A stretch of DNA of 42,664 nucleotides from a virus. The notes under the pieces are model-generated. The model saw only the letters and a program-made list of their open reading frames with translations, was not told the DNA's origin and searched no databases. Both the position numbers and the translations under genes were made by a program. The stretch's first letter is position 1. Each line of letters begins with the position of its first letter. Shown here piece after piece: positions 3,857 to 42,664 of the stretch. The stretch is from the UHGV virus genome UHGV-0036008. One strand, 5' to 3'.

Positions 3857-4013
3857 TGAAACCTTATTCATGTGATATTTTTCAAGTCGGCTTAACTTTC
3901 TCACTTAATCCAACCCTCTCTGAAAATTAATGCCAGCAGATAAAGCCATGCTGAAACAGAGGCCAGGAATAAGTACCATCCTGACCATTTGCTCCAGTGC
4001 CTTAGCAGCGCAC

Positions 4014-4262
4014 TCATGCAGCGTTGCTCACGGGACGATATACACGTTGCTGAACAGGAGGTTTTTTACCCTGGAACTCTGCCGGGCTTGCTGCCTGACG
4101 TTCATCAAGCCAACGCTCAACTTCGTCACGGTTCCATGCGCAGCGTTTGTCAGTGATATACCAGCGTTTAGGAAATTCCCCTGCGCGCTCCATACGGTCG
4201 ATAGTGCTCCATGACAGTGGCACCACCGCCAGGAGTTCCTTCTTACCTAATGCACCTTTCAT
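4014..4262 (-). CDS. AlpA-family excisionase / transcriptional regulator
   Basis: 82 aa; LLAVVPLSWSTIDRMERAGEFPK...AWNRDEVERWL matches AlpA/Xis winged-helix pattern; strong RBS AGAGAGGT. Confidence 0.7.
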   Translation of the reverse strand: MKGALGKKELLAVVPLSWSTIDRMERAGEFPKRWYITDKRCAWNRDEVERWLDERQAASPAEFQGKKPPVQQRVYRPVSNAA

Positions 4263-4311
4263 AAATACCTCTCTTGGTTGCAGTGCGGCGCGTGTGGCGC
4301 CGCGGTGGTGG

Positions 4312-5193
4312 TTACATAGATGTTTCGTTTAATTCTTCCCGACGAACGCTGTAAACGTCGGTGGCTTTTGCCAGCAGTTCGTCATCATCTGAAAGTTTTT
4401 GTGCAATGTATTTGTAAGCCTTATCCAGTTCGGAGACAGTGCTGTAATTCATCGCTGCGCTGGTAAAGGCCATCAGCATTTCTTCTGGATCACGGCTATC
4501 CGCTTTACGAGTTTGCTCATCAGGCTTTTTCACTGGTTTAGCGTTGATCAGACTGTTCATTCCCGCAGCAGTAGTTGTTTGCGGAGTAATGTCTCGCTCA
4601 ACGCGCGGTGCCGTTTCCTGTAATTCGTCAGGGGTGTAAACACCGAGAAGCACATCAGGAGCGTGCAGGCGAGCCCATCGTTTCGTGCAAAGATAGGCAA
4701 GCTGCTGGCGCGGATCCTGTTCCCACAATGGAGAGTTACGCACTCCGGCTTGCGCCATACTGATGGTAAGCTCACGGGGGTCTGCTTCTCCTTTAAGAAC
4801 TGCTGACACAGTTACCGTCAGATTCGGTGATTTATCTGTTTTGCCGTTAACATTCGACCAGTCACCGCTCCAGCGATAATTCAGGCGTGTCGCCAGCAGG
4901 CTGGAAGAGGATACGACCGCGTTTACCAACTGTGCTTCGTAGCCTAACGTTCCGTTTACCACATGCGTTTTCTGCGCCACGGCGAAAGGGTTCATTCCCC
5001 ACTGTGCCGCCTGCATGGTCACCGCCAGACAATCGGCAGGTTTGCCTTCAAGATGTTTCGGTACAGTCGCTTTGCTTTGTGACATCAACTCCGCGAAACG
5101 CACCAGTTGATTCATGCCCTCCGGGCTGAAGATTGCCGCAGCAGTACCTACAGTTGCGCCTGGTTGTGATGTGATTGCGATATCATTGCTCAT
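4312..5193 (-). CDS. Single-strand annealing recombinase (RecT/Red-beta-like)
   Basis: 293 aa; ...RVERDITPQ segment resembles lambda Bet; gene order and translational coupling with upstream exonuclease gene. Confidence 0.6.
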   Translation of the reverse strand: MSNDIAITSQPGATVGTAAAIFSPEGMNQLVRFAELMSQSKATVPKHLEGKPADCLAVTMQAAQWGMNPFAVAQKTHVVNGTLGYEAQLVNAVVSSSSLLATRLNYRWSGDWSNVNGKTDKSPNLTVTVSAVLKGEADPRELTISMAQAGVRNSPLWEQDPRQQLAYLCTKRWARLHAPDVLLGVYTPDELQETAPRVERDITPQTTTAAGMNSLINAKPVKKPDEQTRKADSRDPEEMLMAFTSAAMNYSTVSELDKAYKYIAQKLSDDDELLAKATDVYSVRREELNETSM

Positions 5194-6011
5194 ACGTACA
5201 TATCCTGTTTACGTGCCCAGTCAGGGCGTTTAATAATTTCCACGCCGCCCCATTCATCATTGATGCGGCATTCGTGATAGGTATTCAGATCCCGGCGGAA
5301 CAGAGCGTGCCCGGCATCGACATCCGGCGCATCCAGCGCGAACATGCGTACCGGATACCGACCACAATCAATGCTTTCGCTCACGGCAAGAAAGAAAAAA
5401 CCATGCGACTGACCAGTAACCCTCATCGCTCCTTCGCGGTACATTGCGTCCTGCACGTGGTAGCGGAATTCCTCGATGTGGCGTGCAAAACGATCCATAT
5501 CTGCAACCTTTTTCACGTCGACGATCACGTTGTGCTCGTTCAGCCATTTGTCTGGACGAATGCGGCACAACTCACCAGTCTCTTCATCGTTCCAGTACAT
5601 TGATGCTTCGCAGTAACCAGGAGCTTCCAACATCCAGCGTGCCGCCGGGTGAGCCATTGCGCTATCACGCATCAGCTCCAGTTTCCGCCACTGCTCGGCA
5701 TCAAGTACCGTAATCCCCATATCCGCCACATCACGAAGAAATGCCTCTTCGTCAGCTTTACCTTGTTTCGTCCGACGATCGAATTTCGGTGAAACAATGA
5801 AGCGTTTGTCGAACTCTCCAGGCTCCAGAAGCAGACAGTGCAATGCGGTTCCCATATCCAGTGCAGACTTTTTCTCTTCGTCTTCTGGTGCTGCCTGAAC
5901 CCATTTAAGAAGCGCCGGATTCTTGGCAACCATGTCCAGTTGCGACTTACTCACGCCGTCACCGGCGTGGTAGTCTTCGTTGCTGATGTCGAAATAAATT
6001 CCCGGTTTCAT
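5190..6011 (-). CDS. RecE-like PD-(D/E)xK exonuclease
   Basis: 273 aa; N-terminal GIYFDISNEDYHAG..SKSQL signature of RecE C-terminal nuclease-like domain; overlaps downstream recombinase gene by 4 nt. Confidence 0.65.
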   Translation of the reverse strand: MKPGIYFDISNEDYHAGDGVSKSQLDMVAKNPALLKWVQAAPEDEEKKSALDMGTALHCLLLEPGEFDKRFIVSPKFDRRTKQGKADEEAFLRDVADMGITVLDAEQWRKLELMRDSAMAHPAARWMLEAPGYCEASMYWNDEETGELCRIRPDKWLNEHNVIVDVKKVADMDRFARHIEEFRYHVQDAMYREGAMRVTGQSHGFFFLAVSESIDCGRYPVRMFALDAPDVDAGHALFRRDLNTYHECRINDEWGGVEIIKRPDWARKQDMYV

Positions 6012-34554: not shown

Positions 34555-35283
34555 ATGGAAGTTTTCTGGATAGTTGTTGGTGTGGTTGCGGTGATTATTT
34601 ACGTTATCAACCAGAACAAGACTAAGATCTCTGATCGTACGGTCGTTAATCAGAACAAAACGATAAAGACCGAAGATGGGGAGGTAACGATTAGTCGTAC
34701 ACAGGTGATAGAACACACATCTACTCAGTTTCAAAAAACTGGAGGTAACGCGCCTGATATTTCCGTACCTCCTGCTTATGATAGTGCGGTAATCCAGACA
34801 TATTATAAACAGCAGGAGTTAGCAAAAGAGAGGCAACTGATTCAGCCAAAGCCGTTTACAGCTGAGCTTCCACCTGGAGTGTCAACGCGTCCGGCATATC
34901 ATGGAAGATTCCCTGGTGATGACATATCGTCTCAGTCATCTAAAAAAGCACCTCAGGCAGTATCAGAGCCAGCAAGAATACCTTCTGTATCGCCGCCAAA
35001 AGAAGAATCAGCTAACAGAGTTTCAAGTGGCCGCAAGCAGTGTTTGCGATGCAGAATAAACCTTCCATATGACAAATTCCGGAAATCGTCAAAAAATCCA
35101 GATGGATTGACTAAGTGGTGTGCAAGGTGCCTCGATGGCCCAAAGAATACACGCCATATGAAGTGGTGCCCAATTTGTAATGTCCGCAGAAAACGGACCA
35201 GCTTTTACCCTAATAATCAAAATGCGGACGGCTTAATGGCATGGTGCAAAACGTGCTGGGACGAGCACAAAGCGAAACGATAG
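34555..35283 (+). CDS. Membrane-anchored protein with duplicated C-terminal zinc-ribbon motif
   Basis: N-terminal TM helix (VFWIVVGVVAVIIYVI); two repeats of C-x2-C...N-x-DGL-x2-WC-x2-C. Confidence 0.5.
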   Translation: MEVFWIVVGVVAVIIYVINQNKTKISDRTVVNQNKTIKTEDGEVTISRTQVIEHTSTQFQKTGGNAPDISVPPAYDSAVIQTYYKQQELAKERQLIQPKPFTAELPPGVSTRPAYHGRFPGDDISSQSSKKAPQAVSEPARIPSVSPPKEESANRVSSGRKQCLRCRINLPYDKFRKSSKNPDGLTKWCARCLDGPKNTRHMKWCPICNVRRKRTSFYPNNQNADGLMAWCKTCWDEHKAKR

Positions 35284-35307
35284 GCCGCTCTTGCGGCCTT
35301 TAAATTT
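35283..35307 (+). terminator. Intrinsic terminator
   Basis: GGCCGCTCTTGCGGCC hairpin followed by TTTAAATTT. Confidence 0.5.
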
Positions 35308-35565
35308 ACCGGGTTTGTTTTCGTAATTGTTCGGCACAATAGTCGAGATGTGTTTGCAGATCCTGCATAGACATCTGTGAGCTGGTGACGTAGTTAATCA
35401 GTGCAGTCAGTTCGGCAAGTGGGCCATCGACATTAAATCCATCCTTATCGAGATCCCGGAGTAATTTCATCAAGTGCGATCCCTCCACCAGTGACCTGAC
35501 GCCTCCCGGCGTGTGAATCCTTTCGGTAAATCCGTCTTCCAGTGGATAGTGATACTGCTGCATCT
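35306..35565 (-). CDS. Stand-alone copy of the antirepressor C-terminal domain (86 aa)
   Basis: From internal Met with GGAGAAG RBS; YHYPLEDGFTERIHTPGGVRSLVEGSHLMKLLRDLDKDGFNVDGPLAELT...DLQTH aligns with C-termini of ORFs 1334..2053 and 33447..34157. Confidence 0.45.
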
Positions 35566-35638
35566 TATCTTCTCCATGCAATAACTGTATGTTTATACAG
35601 TAACAAATAATTTGTTTGCTATCCAGCACGTTTTGCAA

Positions 35639-35655
35639 ATTACCCGAAAGGTAAT
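35639..35655. promoter_or_regulatory. ATTACC-N5-GGTAAT site between stand-alone domain gene and tailspike
   Basis: ATTACCcgaaaGGTAAT. Confidence 0.5.
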
Positions 35656-35758
35656 ATCTATTGGTATTTATAGTCTTTTTATCCATATATGGTTTTTCAG
35701 GTAATAGAATAACCAGATATGCGGCGCAACGGGTGCTGCGACTATCTGGAGATTTAAC

Positions 35759-38700
35759 ATGACGGTCTCAACCGAAGTTGACCACAACGAATACACCGGT
35801 AACGGCGTTACGACATCGTTTCCGTATACTTTTCGAATTTTCAGAAAATCAGACCTGGTTGTTCAGGTGTCTGACCTGAACGGGAACGTAACAGAATTGG
35901 TCCTGGATACCGGTTATACGGTAACTGGGGCGGGCACTTATAGTGGCGGTTCTGTGGTTCTTCCGTCTCCGCTTGCTACTGGATGGCGAATTACGATAGA
36001 TCGTGTGCTTGATGTAGTGCAGGACACAGACCTTCGCAATCAGGGAAAATTTTTCCCCGAAGTGCATGAAGATGCCTTTGACTACCTGACGATGCTGATC
36101 CAGCAATGTTTTGGGTGGTTCAGACGTGCATTGATGAAGCCCTCTCTGCTTGCAAAATATTACGATGCAAAGCAAAACAAAATTTCTAACCTTGCAGATC
36201 CATCATTTGAGCAGGACGCTGTAAATAATCGCTCAATGCGTAATTATGTCGATGCTGCAATCGCCGGAGTTGTTGGTGGTTTTGGTTGGTTTATTCAGTA
36301 TGGTTCTGGGGCTGTGTACCGAACGTTCCAGGATAAAATGCGTGATGCTATTAGCCCCAAAGATTTTGGAGCTGTTGGTGATGGTATAAATGACGATTCC
36401 ACTGCAATAAGCGCGTGCCTTGAAGCCTCATCTCCAGGTTATAAAATTGACGGATTAGGGCTTACTTTTAAAGTATCAACTCTTCCGGATGTCAGTCGAT
36501 TTAAAAATGCTCGTTTTTTATTTGAGAGAATACCGGGCCAGCCTCTTTTTTATGCTTCTGAAGATTTTATCCAGGGAGAGTTATTTAAAATTACAGATAC
36601 ACCGTGGTACAACGCCTGGACGCAGGATAAAACGTTTGTATATGACAATGTCATCTATGCGCCTTTTATGGCTGGAGACCGCCATGGTGTGAATAACCTC
36701 CATGTTGCATGGGTTCGCTCAGGAGATGACGGGAAGACCTGGACAACGCCGGAATGGCTTACAGATTTACATGAAAACTATCCCACAGTTAACTATCACT
36801 GCATGAGTATGGGGGTTGTCAGAAATCGCCTTTTTGCTGTAATTGAGACGCGGACCGTGAGAGGAAATAAACTGCAGGTTGCAGAGTTGTGGGATCGCCC
36901 AATGAGTCGCAGCCTTCGCGTTTATGGTGGTATAACGAAAGCAGCAAATCAGCAAGTCGCTTATATTCGCATTACTGATCACGGATTATTTGCTGGTGAT
37001 TTTGTCAACTTCTCAAACTCTGGTGTTACAGGTGTTACCGGGAATATGACGGTGACTACTGTTATTGATAAAAATACCTTTACAGTTACGACGCAAAATA
37101 CCCAGGATGTGGATCAGAATAACGAGGGTAGATACTGGAGTTTTGGCACATCATTTCACTCGTCACCATGGAGAAAAACCAGTCTTGGAACTATTCCTTC
37201 TTTTGTTGACGGAAGCACTCCTGTTACTGAGATTCACAGTTTTGCGACGATTAGCGATAACAGTTTTGCTGTTGGCTACCATAATGGTGATATTGGTCCA
37301 CGCGAGCTTGGGATACTCTATTTCTCTGATGCTTTCGGTTCTCCTGGTAGCTTTGTTCGCAGACGCATACCTGTAGAATATGAGGCGAATGCATCTGAGC
37401 CATGTGTAAAATATTATGATGGCATTCTGTATCTGACGACCAGGGGGACATTAAGTACTCAACCCGGTAGTTCATTGCACAGAAGCTCTGATTTAGGTAC
37501 ATCATGGAATTCTCTTCGCTTCCCAAATAATGTTCATCACTCAAACCTTCCTTTTGCCAAAGTTGGCGATGAGCTGATTATTTTTGGCAGTGAGCGCGCA
37601 TTTGGTGAGTGGGAAGGAGGAGAACCTGATAACCGTTATGCAGGAAATTATCCAAGAACATTTATGACCAGAGTTAACGTCAATGAGTGGAGTCTGGATA
37701 ATGTAGAGTGGGTTAATGTTACTGATCAGATTTATCAGGGCGGAATAGTTAACTCTGCGGTTGGTGTTGGTTCAGTTTGTATCAAAGACAACTGGCTGTA
37801 CTACATTTTCGGTGGGGAAGACTTTCTAAACCCATGGAGCATAGGGGATAACAACAGAAAATATCCTTATGTTCACGATGGTCACCCGGCTGATTTGTAT
37901 TGTTTCAGGGTGAAAATTAAACAGGAAGAATTTGTTTCAAGGGATTTTGTCTACGGAGCCACTCCTAACAGAACGCTTCCTACTTTTATGTCGACGTCAG
38001 GCGTGAGGACGGTTCCTGTACCCGTTGATTTCACAGATGATGTTGCCGTCCAGTCACTGACTGTCCATGCAGGTACATCAGGACAAGTTCGCGCGGAAGT
38101 CAAACTTGAGGGTAATTACGCCATTATTGCGAAGAAAGTACCGTCTGATGATGTTACCGCTCAGAGATTAATCGTTAGCGGCGGTGAAACAACGTCTTCA
38201 GCAGATGGTGCAATGATAACGTTGCATGGTTCCGGAAGCAGTACTCCACGTCGCGCGGTATATAACGCACTCGAACATCTTTTTGAGAACGGAGATGTTA
38301 AACCTTATCTTGATAATGTAAATGCTCTTGGTGGTCCGGGAAACAGGTTCTCGACAGTTTATCTTGGCTCCAATCCTGTGGTTACCAGTGACGGAACATT
38401 AAAGACAGAGCCGGTCTCTCCTGACGAAGCATTGCTGGATGCCTGGGGTGACGTCAGGTATATCGCTTATAAATGGCTGAACGCTGTCGCTATAAAGGGG
38501 GAAGAAGGGGCGAGGATACATCATGGTGTAATCGCGCAGCAACTTCGTGATGTTCTTATTTCTCACGGACTCATGGAAGAAGAAAGCACAACATGCCGCT
38601 ATGCCTTTCTTTGCTATGACGATTATCCCGCAGTATATGATGACGTCATTACTGGCCAAAGGGAAATGCCGCTGACTGATAATGACGGGAGCATCATTGT

Positions 38701-38878
38701 TGATGAGGATGATAATCCAGTGATGGTAATAGAAGACATCATTGAGCGCGTTGAAATAACGCCAGCAGGATCTAGATGGGGGGTCAGACCTGATCTCTTA
38801 TTCTATATCGAGGCAGCATGGCAGCGCAGAGAAATGGATAAGATAAAAGAGCGGGTTCAGTCTCTGGAAGAACGTTAA
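35759..38878 (+). CDS. Tailspike / tail fibre with depolymerase-type domain and C-terminal S74 intramolecular chaperone
   Basis: 1039 aa; T7-tail-fibre-like N-terminus (NEYTGNGVTTSFPYTFRIF); DFGAVGDGINDDSTAI beta-helix motif; Asp-boxes SGDDGKTW and SSDLGTSW; C-terminal SDGTLKTE...HHGVIAQQL autoprocessing signature. Confidence 0.8.
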   Translation: MTVSTEVDHNEYTGNGVTTSFPYTFRIFRKSDLVVQVSDLNGNVTELVLDTGYTVTGAGTYSGGSVVLPSPLATGWRITIDRVLDVVQDTDLRNQGKFFPEVHEDAFDYLTMLIQQCFGWFRRALMKPSLLAKYYDAKQNKISNLADPSFEQDAVNNRSMRNYVDAAIAGVVGGFGWFIQYGSGAVYRTFQDKMRDAISPKDFGAVGDGINDDSTAISACLEASSPGYKIDGLGLTFKVSTLPDVSRFKNARFLFERIPGQPLFYASEDFIQGELFKITDTPWYNAWTQDKTFVYDNVIYAPFMAGDRHGVNNLHVAWVRSGDDGKTWTTPEWLTDLHENYPTVNYHCMSMGVVRNRLFAVIETRTVRGNKLQVAELWDRPMSRSLRVYGGITKAANQQVAYIRITDHGLFAGDFVNFSNSGVTGVTGNMTVTTVIDKNTFTVTTQNTQDVDQNNEGRYWSFGTSFHSSPWRKTSLGTIPSFVDGSTPVTEIHSFATISDNSFAVGYHNGDIGPRELGILYFSDAFGSPGSFVRRRIPVEYEANASEPCVKYYDGILYLTTRGTLSTQPGSSLHRSSDLGTSWNSLRFPNNVHHSNLPFAKVGDELIIFGSERAFGEWEGGEPDNRYAGNYPRTFMTRVNVNEWSLDNVEWVNVTDQIYQGGIVNSAVGVGSVCIKDNWLYYIFGGEDFLNPWSIGDNNRKYPYVHDGHPADLYCFRVKIKQEEFVSRDFVYGATPNRTLPTFMSTSGVRTVPVPVDFTDDVAVQSLTVHAGTSGQVRAEVKLEGNYAIIAKKVPSDDVTAQRLIVSGGETTSSADGAMITLHGSGSSTPRRAVYNALEHLFENGDVKPYLDNVNALGGPGNRFSTVYLGSNPVVTSDGTLKTEPVSPDEALLDAWGDVRYIAYKWLNAVAIKGEEGARIHHGVIAQQLRDVLISHGLMEEESTTCRYAFLCYDDYPAVYDDVITGQREMPLTDNDGSIIVDEDDNPVMVIEDIIERVEITPAGSRWGVRPDLLFYIEAAWQRREMDKIKERVQSLEER

Positions 38879-38904
38879 AAAAAAGCCCGCAAAATATTGC
38901 GGGC
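38877..38904 (-). terminator. Intrinsic terminator oriented for minus-strand transcripts
   Basis: GCCCGCAAAATATTGCGGGC hairpin; U8 only on minus-strand side. Confidence 0.45.
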
Positions 38905-39184
38905 ATCAAAAACGGAGTTGGTGAAAAGTTATCTTTGAATTCTATCATGAATCAGTACGTATTTTAAATACATGTTCAGGTTTATTACACCATAGCATTA
39001 TTAAATACAAAATTAAGTCTATGGTTCCTGTACAACTGCCCCCACTCTGCTGGCTCGTTCTGTAAAATCATTAGTACTTTTATTGAGATATATGATATGG
39101 AACAATAATGATTCATATATGGTTTACTATGCGGGTTTAGTCATCAATAATTGACTGGCTTATAGATAGTAAACAGGAGAAAGT

Positions 39185-39589
39185 ATGTCTGCTCAAGTAA
39201 CAAGTGAGCAATTAAATCAGTTGCTTAGTTTTGGTTCTCTTGCTGCAGTTATTGCAGGTGTCCCTCCGGAGGTTGCTTTAGGGGCTTTGGCTGGGGCGGT
39301 AATTTTTGTTACCTCTGCAGTAGAGTACCCCATCCGTCGCCGGGTGCTCCTGTCGATGCTCAGCTTTCTTTGCGGCCTTCTCTTTTACAAACCAGCAGCA
39401 TCAATTCTTATCGGCATAGCCAGCCTGATCCCTACCATCACGCAGGACTCTTTTGAAAAAGGGATTGTTTTCTCTGCAGGCGCATTCGTGTCAGCAATTG
39501 TCGCTGTGCGTATTGGTATATGGCTCTATCACCGTTCCGATAATCCACGCGAGTTAATTCCGGGGAGAAAAGACGATGGTAACGCATGA
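39185..39589 (+). CDS. Holin-like membrane protein
   Basis: 134 aa, several hydrophobic segments, first gene of lysis cassette, AGGAG RBS. Confidence 0.55.
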   Translation: MSAQVTSEQLNQLLSFGSLAAVIAGVPPEVALGALAGAVIFVTSAVEYPIRRRVLLSMLSFLCGLLFYKPAASILIGIASLIPTITQDSFEKGIVFSAGAFVSAIVAVRIGIWLYHRSDNPRELIPGRKDDGNA

Positions 39590-39884
39590 GTTTTTTTTGC
39601 TTATCACTAATGCAGTTATTTGCACTGGCATAGCAATTCGCGTTGTCACATTCCGGCGTAACGGCTCTCAACATCGAAGGTGGGGAGGATGGCTTGCTTA
39701 TTTCCTGATTGTTGCTGCGGCCAGTATTCCTGTTCGAGTCGCCTATGCAATCTGGTTACGTACGCCAATGGCTGTGGATTTATCTGAGGTCATTATCAAC
39801 GCTGTCATGCTGGCTGCGGTTATTAAAACGCGCGGTAACGTCGTTCAAATTTTTAAAGTATCGAGGTCTAAACATGGAGATTAA
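39576..39884 (+). CDS. Second holin / antiholin-like small membrane protein
   Basis: 102 aa, two hydrophobic helices, overlaps neighbours. Confidence 0.45.
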
Positions 39885-40982: not shown

Positions 40983-41153
40983 CATGGCATTTTTCATGGT
41001 ACTGATTTCCGGTGACGGTATATAAAACGGTACGGGAAAAATTGAGATTTGGAAAAATGTTATCACTCAATTGGTTATGGTTATCGTAAATAATTGAGTG
41101 GGAATGATTCCGCGTCTGGCACAGCCAGGCACCTGATGGCATGAAATGCCGCT

Positions 41154-41183
41154 AAGCCCGCGTAATTGCGGGCTTTTTTTTGT
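41154..41183 (+). terminator. Rho-independent terminator ending the late/lysis operon
   Basis: GCCCGCGTAATTGCGGGC hairpin followed by T8. Confidence 0.7.
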
Positions 41184-41281
41184 TTGTGTTTGGCACGATC
41201 TGGCAACGGGAGGAAGCGCCAAGCACCGTTTGAGCATGGCATTAAAGCTGGTATTATGGTTTGGCGATGCCATGATTGATG

Positions 41282-41390
41282 CCGATACCATGCTGCGTTC
41301 TTTTGTGTGTTCATGGTATTAATATTCTATAAGTTACTGTTTCGTAAGAAAAAATACGATAAATTCGAGATTTTTTCAGCATGGTATCGG
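41282..41390. repeat. Perfect 14-bp inverted repeat CCGATACCATGCTG / CAGCATGGTATCGG plus extra CATGGTAT copies upstream of second integrase
   Basis: Read from sequence; candidate integrase arm-type sites or att-region elements. Confidence 0.5.
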
Positions 41391-41411
41391 AGACGAAGAA
41401 GGACAAGGTAC

Positions 41412-42614
41412 ATGCTGACCGATACCAAGCTGCGCAATCTCAAGCCCAGGGACAAACTCTACAAAGTGAATGACCGGGAAGGTCTCTATGTGGCAGTGAC
41501 TCCAGCCGGCTCCATCTCGTTCCGTTACAACTACTCAATCAACGGTCGGCAGGAGACCATCACCTTTGGGCGTTATGGTGTCGGTGGCATCACCCTGGCC
41601 GAAGCCCGCGAGCTGTTGGGTGACGCCAAGAAGATGGTTGCGGCGGGCAAGTCGCCGGCCAAGGAGAAAGCCCGAGACAAGGCGCGGGTGAAAGATGCAG
41701 AGACGTTCGGTGCCTGGGCGGAGAAGTGGCTGCGTGGCTACCAGATGGCCGACTCCACCCGCGATATGCGCCGCTCGGTTTATGAGCGTGAGCTGAAGCC
41801 GAAATTCAGCAATCAGAAGCTGGTGGAGATCACCCACGAAGACTTGCGGGCGCTGGCTGATGCCATTGTTGAGCGAGGCGCACCGGCCACCGCCGTTCAT
41901 GTGCGTGAAATCGTGTTGCAGGTATTTCGCTGGGCCATCGAGCGTGGGCAGAAGGTCGAAAACCCGGCAGAACTGGTGCGCCCAACAAGCATCGCTCGAT
42001 TCGAGCCACGTGACCGAGCGTTGACGCCAGAAGAAATTGGGCTGATGTACCAGTACATGGAGCGAGTGGGCACAAGCCCAACAAACCGTGCGGCGGCCAA
42101 GCTGTTATTGCTGACGATGGTGCGCAAGAGCGAGCTGACCAATGCGACCTGGAGCGAGATCAATTTCAGCGAAGCGTTGTGGACGATTCCAAAGGAGCGG
42201 ATGAAACGCCGTAACCCGCACCTGGTATTTCTGTCCCAGCAGGCTCTGGATATTTTCATTGCCATGAAAACCTTTGCCGGTGGTTCCGACTTCGTTTTGC
42301 CATCACGGTACGACTCGGATGCGCCGATGAGCGCTGCCACACTTAACCAGGTGCTGACGCTGACTTACAAGGCGGCGCAGAAAGATGGGAAGTCACTTAC
42401 CAAGTTCGGACCGCATGATTTGCGGCGCACAGCCAGCACGCTGTTGCATGAGGCCGGCTACAACACCGACTGGATCGAGAAGTGCCTGGCGCACGAGCAG
42501 AAGGGCGTGAGGGCTGTCTACAACAAGGCTGAGTACCGCGAGCAGCGGGCGGCGATGTTGCAGGATTGGGCCGATATGATTGATGAGTGGACTTCGGGAG
42601 GCAGTAAGGGTTGA
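41412..42614 (+). CDS. int: Tyrosine integrase, P4-like family (second copy, diverged paralog)
   Basis: Start at internal Met of track ORF (MLTDTKLRNLKPRDKLYKVNDREGLYVAV); same domain signatures as ORF 50..1300, clearly diverged. Confidence 0.85.
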   Translation: MLTDTKLRNLKPRDKLYKVNDREGLYVAVTPAGSISFRYNYSINGRQETITFGRYGVGGITLAEARELLGDAKKMVAAGKSPAKEKARDKARVKDAETFGAWAEKWLRGYQMADSTRDMRRSVYERELKPKFSNQKLVEITHEDLRALADAIVERGAPATAVHVREIVLQVFRWAIERGQKVENPAELVRPTSIARFEPRDRALTPEEIGLMYQYMERVGTSPTNRAAAKLLLLTMVRKSELTNATWSEINFSEALWTIPKERMKRRNPHLVFLSQQALDIFIAMKTFAGGSDFVLPSRYDSDAPMSAATLNQVLTLTYKAAQKDGKSLTKFGPHDLRRTASTLLHEAGYNTDWIEKCLAHEQKGVRAVYNKAEYREQRAAMLQDWADMIDEWTSGGSKG

Positions 42615-42664
42615 TGTTTTTGCTATCTTTGATAGCATTGAAGTTGATGCCGTGAATTTATAAA

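Follow-up and report, generated by a model that had tools for sequence, protein, structure and literature searches.

A stretch of viral DNA of 42,664 nucleotides (UHGV-0036008; hereafter the window) contains on its plus strand a gene that very probably encodes a complete bacteriophage endosialidase, i.e., the precursor of a K1-capsule-specific endo-alpha-2,8-sialidase tailspike. The open reading frame (ORF) listing places this gene at exactly positions 35759-38878; it starts with ATG and encodes 1039 amino acids (aa) plus the stop codon. All five strings that an earlier inspection of the letters alone (the sequence-only reading) had quoted were found in this ORF when motif positions were read in the sequence. 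Pfam searches identified four endosialidase domains in their canonical order, all of them scoring above the curated cutoffs (24-35 bits), plus a Peptidase_S74 domain. The best matches in the PDB sequence search were the EndoNF entries 1v0e, 3gvl, 3gvj and 3gvk (E=0, aa 205-876), and the endosialidase 4hiz was matched at E 9.4e-271. Furthermore, RefSeq genes annotated as 'endosialidase catalytic beta-propeller domain-containing protein' share 99.6-99.9% nucleotide identity with the gene.

The N-terminal module and the joint segment

The particle-binding (adaptor) module spans aa 1-198 (35759-36354, plus strand) and is laid out as a beta-sandwich (aa ~9-82) followed by helices. Judged by its sequence, it is of the epsilon15/Uetakevirus type: the tailspike N-termini of VB_ST_E15, SPN1S and O157 typing phage 10 share 67-71% aa identity with it, the DNA of phage EC.W1-9 is 98.5% identical at the nucleotide level up to position 36354, where the identity stops, and Dpo31/Dpo36 in the PDB match it at E 3e-35. 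The module had previously been described as a T7-type adaptor, a label that the Pfam results do not support. The Phage_T7_tail profile (PF03906) reached 16.1 bits against a cutoff of 25.2, with a best stretch of only aa 135-161; gp17 of K1F, used as a positive control, scored 63 bits, and PF03906 was present in 0 of 120 homologues among the matches listed. Because the N-terminus remained below the threshold, we used a fold search, and at this level the label does hold. The AlphaFold model, with pLDDT values of 86-93 across aa 11-80, matched the N-termini of Carin-1, PhiM1 and T7 gp17 in Foldseek. These hits included 8ck1_B (E 1.5e-11), 8vbx, 8dsp, 7y22 and 7y1c, as well as the T7 gp17 N-terminal structures 7boz and 7ey9 (E 3e-4 to 1e-3), all with a probability of 1.0; the TM-scores remained modest (0.3-0.5), since a monomer model renders the helical part poorly. 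The module thus shares the beta-sandwich plus helix fold of the gp17 N-termini in solved podovirus tails.

The adaptor is followed by a joint segment of ~34 residues (aa ~199-233; 36355-36456, plus strand) that differs from both EC.W1-9 and CUS-3. It contains DFGAVGDGINDDSTAI (aa 202-217, nt 36362-36409), which holds the single occurrence of the pattern G-x(1,2)-GDG-xx-DD in the motif scan. The End_N_terminal domain, the endosialidase N-terminal extension, was identified at aa 205-271 (36371-36571, plus strand; PF12218, 109.6 bits), and in the PDB sequence search it aligns with the beginning of the EndoNF crystal chains 1v0e/3gvl. The identity of 57% between aa 199-271 and 1v0e implies the fold of the EndoNF N-terminal extension. 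On the basis of these alignments, the DFGAVGDGINDDSTAI motif corresponds to the opening ~20 residues of this extension.

The catalytic region and the C-terminal chaperone

The catalytic six-bladed beta-propeller (aa 272-721; 36572-37921, plus strand) was detected by End_beta_propel (PF12217) with 771.2 bits and an E-value of 1.7e-232. A beta-barrel is inserted in it at aa 383-465 (36905-37153, plus strand; PF12195, End_beta_barrel, 155.7 bits), and the stalk follows at aa 722-876 (37922-38386, plus strand; PF12219, End_tail_spike, 260.4 bits), ending at the maturation site ...NPVVT876. The two Asp-boxes SGDDGKTW (aa 321-328; 36719-36742) and SSDLGTSW (aa 576-583; 37484-37507), both on the plus strand, align with those of K1F. 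In a six-frame scan of the 42.6-kb window, the pattern S-x-D-x-G-x-[TS]-W was found only twice, each time inside the tailspike ORF, and the motif counts show that the quoted motifs are not due to chance. Together with the PDB matches, the End_beta_propel score confirms the sialidase-like Asp-box propeller put forward earlier; the sub-threshold score of BNR_2 on the propeller (16.8 against a cutoff of 31.4) is no argument against these boxes, since End_beta_propel is the model dedicated to this fold and spans the propeller. The catalytic residues of the K1F endosialidase, H350, R549, E581, R596 and R647 (PMC13564897), align with H309, R515, E547, R562 and R613, and all five are identical. The propeller as a whole is 99.6% identical to that of CUS-3 and 70.4% identical to that of K1F. 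In the stalk, the position aligned with K1F Q853, which we take to be a polySia-binding residue, is a methionine (position 819).

The remaining residues, aa 877-1039 (38387-38875, plus strand), correspond to an intramolecular chaperone of the Peptidase S74 family (PF13884, 41.4 bits against a cutoff of 22). The EndoNF chaperone structure 3gw6 matched at E 2e-93 over aa 757-1038, and further PDB matches were 3gud, 7y5s and 6eu4. Within the chaperone, the motifs SDGTLKTE (aa 877-884; 38387-38410) and HHGVIAQQL (aa 921-929; 38519-38545) lie on the plus strand, as do the elements that they contain. Ser877 (38387-38389) and Lys882 (38402-38404) align with S911 and K916 of K1F, with the Ser-x4-Lys spacing of the dyad, and the trimerization motif GVIAQ is found at aa 923-927 (38525-38539); the roles of the Ser-Lys dyad and of GVIAQ have been described (PMC3742440). 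According to the K1F record AM084414, mature gp17* ends at residue 910 (maturation between 910 and 911), which maps to the Thr876-Ser877 bond. In line with this, the EndoNF crystal chains stop at the aligned ...NPIVT, matching ...NPVVT876. The S74 label that had been read from the letters is confirmed by the Pfam and PDB matches, and the chaperone is predicted to be self-cleaving.

A CUS-3-type cassette in a Uetakevirus prophage

Based on sequence comparison, the window is a ZX5-like (epsilon15-like) temperate prophage of the Uetakevirus group. It is collinear with ZX5, which is classified as Uetakevirus, over the whole stretch between integrase and attR core, with 97-99% identity over most blocks; several blocks away from the spike, e.g., 33943-35306, have been replaced. 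Both this collinearity and the 67-71% identity of the N-terminal module to epsilon15-group spikes place it in Uetakevirus. The neighbors of the tailspike gene are an antirepressor and a lysis cassette (holin, endolysin and DUF2514). A GC-rich hairpin beside an A-run, found by a terminator-like scan and by reading the sequence, lies 7 nt past the stop codon (38885-38904) and is likely a terminator. The att core at 41093-41109 marks the end of the ZX5-like prophage. Integrase genes at 50-1300 and 41307-42614, one near each end, suggested that the window might contain a terminal repeat or a tandem copy or be circularly permuted. This was rejected because the two integrases differ, with only patchy similarity of 66-76% at the nucleotide level, and because the prophage ends at this core. 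Of 5426 complete E. coli genomes, 72 carry the same gene with its chimeric junction, among them that of IAI39 (O7:K1), in which the prophage around the gene is full of insertion sequence (IS) elements and pseudogenes. Spikes of the CUS-3 type were counted in ~150 genomes. Several lysogen copies are IS-disrupted, including one with an IS3 element inside the gene, and therefore not all copies are functional.

The closest relative is the ORF7 tail protein of the Uetakevirus vB_EcoP_ZX5 (MW722083), which is 99.6% identical over all 1039 residues and differs by a handful of substitutions; its flanking genes and att core are the same as those of the window. The ZX5 spike has been described as a T7-like N-terminus plus an endosialidase plus an intramolecular chaperone, and ZX5 itself as a viable, plaque-forming and lysogenizing temperate phage (PMC9782041). 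The passages of that paper considered here describe no experiment on capsule dependence, nor do they say that the host YO1 is K1. Since the literature already contains a 99.6% identical protein with this three-domain description, the sequence-only reading is essentially correct but ordinary: the enzyme family, the self-cleaving chaperone and this protein itself were all known before. One small addition is the mosaic structure of the gene.

This mosaic is sharply bounded. A CUS-3-type cassette (aa 234-1025; 36457-38835, plus strand) is embedded in a Uetakevirus backbone, with the DNA identity to CUS-3 setting in at ~36457 and ending at ~38835. The cassette comprises the propeller, the barrel, the stalk and most of the chaperone, and it shows seven differences in 792 aa (99.1% identity) with SiaK1 of CUS-3 (CP000711). 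CUS-3 is a P22-like Lederbergvirus prophage from the E. coli K1 strain RS218, and the SiaK1 database entry quotes direct-assay evidence that the protein has endo-alpha-sialidase activity. Both spikes belong to temperate podoviruses of K1 strains. In contrast, CUS-3 has an unrelated particle-binding module (17.5% identity in those parts of the first 192 aa that can be aligned), aa 193-233 and the final 14 aa diverge, and neuO, which adjoins the spike in CUS-3, is lacking in the window prophage. The search for a CUS-3-like neuO went by its AAGACTC heptad tract, which was not found even when three mismatches were allowed. K1F EndoNF (gp17; PDB 1v0e/3gvl and 3gw6) has the same domain order as the window spike and is 56-70% identical to it across the catalytic part, against 54% in the chaperone; none of the catalytic residues is changed, and both Asp-boxes are retained, as is the cleavage dyad. 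K1F, however, is a lytic T7-like phage whose spike has a true Phage_T7_tail N-terminus plus a Tail_spike_N domain, and relative to it the window spike has insertions at two places, one of 7 aa in the propeller (FVDGSTP) and one of 8 aa in the chaperone. The epsilon15-group spikes and that of EC.W1-9, on the other hand, share the N-terminal ~166-198 aa (67-71% identity; 98.5% at the nucleotide level for EC.W1-9) and the position of the gene upstream of the lysis cassette, but the heads with which they degrade the receptor are right-handed beta-helix enzymes (PF13229, PF12708) instead of an endosialidase.

The GDG motif marks the left joint, between the end of EC.W1-9 identity at 36354 and the start of CUS-3 identity at ~36457. 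The endosialidase N-terminal extension begins with the motif G-A-x-GDG-xx-DD, and so do the PF12708 depolymerases on the same adaptor in EC.W1-9; the motif may therefore serve as a shared recombination linker. We tentatively propose, as a possibility somewhat short of even, that the gene is a double-crossover chimera in which a P22-like cassette entered an epsilon15-like tailspike, with the motif acting as the linker by which unrelated podovirus lineages swap between beta-helix and propeller heads. The mosaic borders themselves are observed, whereas the role of the motif as a hot-spot and the direction of the transfer may be as suggested by this scheme.

Predicted function and alternative explanations

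We directly observed the domain content, the conserved residues, the near-identity to described proteins and the prophage context; from homology to EndoNF and CUS-3 SiaK1 we infer trimerization, cleavage, enzyme activity and specificity. Three chains would assemble into a trimer, with the chaperone (aa 877-1039) nucleating the folding of the stalk and then cutting itself off between Thr876 and Ser877 by means of the Ser877/Lys882 dyad. The beta-sandwich/helical module (aa 1-198) would fix the mature trimer to the short tail, and the propeller (aa 272-721; H309, R515, E547, R562, R613) would bind and cleave polysialic acid, which would let the virion bore its way across the K1 capsule and reach the outer membrane. 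The sequence-only reading had proposed a capsule or O-antigen depolymerase, possibly endosialidase-like, that would predict the receptor polysaccharide. The Pfam and PDB results and the residue conservation favor a capsule depolymerase tailspike, and an O-antigen target is unsupported. Together with the comparison to ZX5, CUS-3 and K1F, they indicate that the protein is very probably a true endosialidase, so that the predicted receptor is the alpha-2,8-polysialic acid K1 capsule.

A quite different architecture, with a pectate-lyase-like right-handed beta-helix ahead of the sialidase-like propeller and possibly an O-antigen or a non-sialic capsule as the target, would agree with the resemblance of DFGAVGDG..DD to the start of PF12708 enzymes, and with the fact that the same N-terminal module is joined to a true PF12708 enzyme in EC.W1-9 (45.4 bits, our positive control). 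Yet the PF12708 profile covers only aa 201-221 (21 residues) with 14.3 bits against a cutoff of 27 (E 0.035); the motif resembles the first turn of such enzymes, and no such helix comes after it. The subsequent residues are those of End_N_terminal and End_beta_propel, aligned to EndoNF 1v0e/3gvl, and the alignment of aa 205-876 to the EndoNF crystal chains shows no large gaps and therefore leaves no space for a beta-helix domain. Given, in addition, the 99% identity of the catalytic part to the endosialidase of CUS-3, we regard the beta-helix reported earlier as absent and a depolymerase with both modules as exceedingly improbable.

Just as improbable is a specificity that has moved off K1, e.g., to the alternating 2,8/2,9 polysialic acid of K92 or to O-acetylated forms only. 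The seven substitutions relative to CUS-3 in aa 234-1025 and the exchange of Q for M relative to K1F at position 819 could be taken in its favor, but the near-identity of the propeller to that of the K1 phage CUS-3 argues against it, as does the presence of the O7:K1 strain IAI39 among the listed lysogens. It is also very unlikely, if slightly less so, that the gene is a relic of a defective prophage, the spike being not made or not used in a virion, or serving the host, for instance in capsule remodelling. The degraded state of the IAI39 prophage, the IS3 insertion and the lack of the CUS-3 neuO repeat tract would fit such a relic. Within the window, however, the ORF and the ZX5-like gene order from integrase to attR are intact and every catalytic and cleavage residue has been kept, and ZX5, with its nearly identical spike, is described as forming plaques and lysogenizing. 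Thus, a K1-specific endosialidase tailspike remains the preferred interpretation.

The practical value of this finding is modest and it raises no new question. The gene predicts that the prophage, when induced, targets K1-encapsulated E. coli, i.e., neonatal-meningitis and ExPEC lineages. It also shows that K1 strains harbor at least two unrelated lineages of temperate podoviruses, P22-like CUS-3 and the epsilon15-like ZX5 type, which carry nearly the same endosialidase cassette. This makes the gene a tidy case of receptor-binding-module exchange, which may be of use in host-range prediction and in spike engineering.

The tailspike gene and its endosialidase domains

The tailspike is encoded by a single, long ORF with an ATG start, which occupies exactly positions 35759-38878, as the sequence-only reading had it, lies on the + strand and specifies 1039 aa. 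The protein contains all motif strings quoted in that reading: the GDG motif DFGAVGDGINDDSTAI (aa 202-217), the Asp-boxes SGDDGKTW (aa 321-328) and SSDLGTSW (aa 576-583), SDGTLKTE (aa 877-884) and HHGVIAQQL (aa 921-929). Across all six frames, the 42.6-kb window has just two matches to the Asp-box pattern S-x-D-x-G-x-[TS]-W, both within the tailspike ORF, and a single match to the GDG..DD pattern; therefore, these motifs are real and not chance matches.

Pfam analysis showed a complete, canonical endosialidase architecture, consisting of End_N_terminal (aa 205-271, 110 bits), End_beta_propel (aa 272-721, 771 bits, E 1.7e-232), a nested End_beta_barrel (aa 383-465, 156 bits), End_tail_spike (aa 722-876, 260 bits) and Peptidase_S74 (aa 877-937, 41 bits versus a cutoff of 22). 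Searches of PDB sequences matched the EndoNF spike of phage K1F (1v0e, 3gvl, 3gvj and 3gvk; E=0 over aa 205-876), a second endosialidase (4hiz, 9e-271) and the structure of the EndoNF chaperone domain (3gw6, 2e-93, aa 757-1038). The catalytic residues listed for K1F are H350, R549, E581, R596 and R647 (PMC13564897). When the window protein was aligned with both K1F gp17 and SiaK1, the spike of the P22-like prophage CUS-3, all five proved to be kept, as H309, R515, E547, R562 and R613. According to its GenBank record, the K1F protein matures after residue 910, which aligns with the T876-S877 bond. K882 lies at S-x4-K spacing from S877, and GVIAQ is found at aa 923-927; a Ser-Lys dyad has been linked to autoprocessing and the conserved GVIAQ motif to trimerisation (PMC3742440). 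With the full Pfam set, the EndoNF match and the catalytic residues, the tentative earlier call of an endosialidase-like protein was right; the Asp-box propeller label is borne out by the End_beta_propel score and the EndoNF match, and the S74 chaperone label by the Peptidase_S74 and 3gw6 matches.

The adaptor module and the GDG motif

The N-terminal region (aa 1-~166) shares 67-71% identity with spike N-termini of the epsilon15 group (VB_ST_E15, SPN1S and O157 typing phage 10) and 98.5% with that of phage EC.W1-9. [quoted passage not shown] When the module was modelled with AlphaFold from 24 homologues, the beta-sandwich was predicted with confidence (pLDDT 86-93 over aa 11-80) and the helices were poorly placed. 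Foldseek searches against the PDB matched this model to podovirus fibre or spike N-termini, all with probability 1.0 and modest TM-scores, namely those of Carin-1 (8ck1_B, 1.5e-11), PhiM1, LME-1, T7 (8dsp) and Kp7/Kp9, and T7 gp17 (7boz/7ey9, 3e-4 to 1e-3). On the strength of these matches, the earlier label of a T7-type adaptor is fair at the level of the fold, but it does not hold at the level of sequence family, by which the adaptor is of the epsilon15/Uetakevirus type. Phage_T7_tail scored a sub-threshold 16.1 bits (cutoff 25.2; 63 bits for the K1F control), and this Pfam domain was present in none of the 120 database homologues listed, among which the module is joined to PF12708, PF12218, PF18668 and PF27114 heads.

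The GDG motif had been read as part of a pectate-lyase-like beta-helix. This label was wrong: PF12708 covers only aa 201-221 with 14.3 bits, below the cutoff of 27, and the region directly downstream is the endosialidase N-terminal extension followed by the propeller, for which the EndoNF crystal chains give a residue-by-residue alignment. Even so, the GDG motif is genuine as a shared element: in EC.W1-9, a PF12708 enzyme proper (45.4 bits) is joined to the same N-terminal module, with RDFGAKGDGITDD at the equivalent position and a weak reciprocal match to End_N_terminal. All four of EC.W1-9, CUS-3, K1F and the window protein have G-A-x-GDG-xx-DD precisely where adaptor and head meet, and PF12708 enzymes share this motif with the N-terminal extension of endosialidases. 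In a comparison of positions 4001-5875 of the EC.W1-9 locus (L004) with window positions 35459-36354, the adaptor module is 98.5% identical in nucleotides, and in EC.W1-9 it is fused to a pectate-lyase-like beta-helix enzyme.

Prophage context and distribution in E. coli

With the tail protein of vB_EcoP_ZX5, a temperate phage of the genus Uetakevirus, the window protein shares 99.6% identity. The window is collinear with ZX5 from a ZX5-type integrase (50-1300, 99% nt identity) up to 41093-41109, where the att core ATTGAGTGGGAATGATT lies; the ZX5 paper gives this core for insertion at the guaA 3' end (PMC9782041). The spike gene is flanked by a Bro-N antirepressor region on one side and, on the other, by a lysis cassette comprising two holins, a GH19 endolysin and DUF2514. 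The consecutive, overlapping holins (Phage_holin_8, then Phage_holin_3_7; 39185-39884) precede the endolysin and DUF2514 genes, and are separated from the spike by an AT-rich non-coding gap of 306 nt (38879-39184). Behind the spike stop codon is a GC-rich hairpin (38885-38904), GCCCGCAAAATATTGCGGGC, whose ZX5 counterpart has the loop reverse-complemented, GCCCGCAATATTTTGCGGGT; the difference is a small hairpin inversion amid otherwise 99%-identical sequence.

Just upstream of the spike gene, block 33943-35306 has no ZX5 match except for 260 nt (84%) at 34182-34441, and looks like a moron-like insertion. Its ORF (34555-35283, +) encodes 242 aa with a hydrophobic N-terminal segment and a Cys-rich C-terminus, the only Pfam match being a sub-threshold Stc1 zinc-finger (21.5 bits, cutoff 24.8). 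Directly beyond the attR core, the stretch 41110-42664 holds a second, different, P4-type tyrosine integrase (ORF 41307/41412-42614, +; Arm-DNA-bind_3, Phage_int_M and Phage_integrase), with only patchy 66-76% nt similarity to the prophage integrase at 50-1300. Its presence suggests that a further integrative element shares the guaA-side site, in tandem with the prophage.

Of 5426 complete E. coli genomes, 72 carry the identical gene with its adaptor/enzyme junction, in every case on the chromosome. Its RefSeq annotation is that of an endosialidase domain protein, and the O7:K1 ExPEC strain IAI39 is one of the carriers. Some lysogen copies are decayed: an IS3 element lies inside the tailspike gene in one genome (H11), and a group II intron and IS3-family elements interrupt the IAI39 prophage (locus L006) close to its spike and lysis genes. 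Several E. coli genomes have two matching places each, most likely representing ZX5-type and CUS-3-type endosialidase prophages in one genome.

Spike function and the mosaic gene

What the analysis shows is the domain content, the conserved residues for catalysis and cleavage, near-identity to proteins with assayed activity and with solved structures, and the prophage context. By homology, the chains would trimerise, driven by the C-terminal chaperone domain, which self-cleavage between T876 and S877 would free; the N-terminal beta-sandwich would fix the spike to the tail, and degradation of alpha-2,8-polysialic acid by the spike would clear the virion's way to the K1 E. coli outer membrane. 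The CUS-3 spike record cites direct-assay evidence of activity. [quoted passage not shown] The initial observation was essentially correct, apart from the beta-helix label and the adaptor type, and the protein, its family, the chaperone and the specific phage lineage have already been described.

The only addition to published knowledge is the mosaic structure of the spike gene. DNA identity to EC.W1-9 (98.5%) already holds upstream of the gene and ends at nt 36354, and identity to CUS-3-type spikes (~98-99%) starts abruptly at ~nt 36457 (codon 234) and ends at ~nt 38835 (codon 1025), giving a 792-aa cassette with seven amino-acid differences from SiaK1. Neither parent is closely matched by the 102-nt joint (aa ~199-233), where the GDG motif lies, or by the final 14 codons, and EC.W1-9 backbone identity returns at 39160 (93%). 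Thus, a P22-like phage (CUS-3) and an epsilon15-like phage (ZX5-type) share what is essentially one endosialidase head, each on an adaptor unrelated to the other's. In contrast to CUS-3, the window prophage has no neuO heptad tract, even with three mismatches allowed. The cassette exchange, with its sharp border at the joint that holds the GDG motif, is a minor finding.
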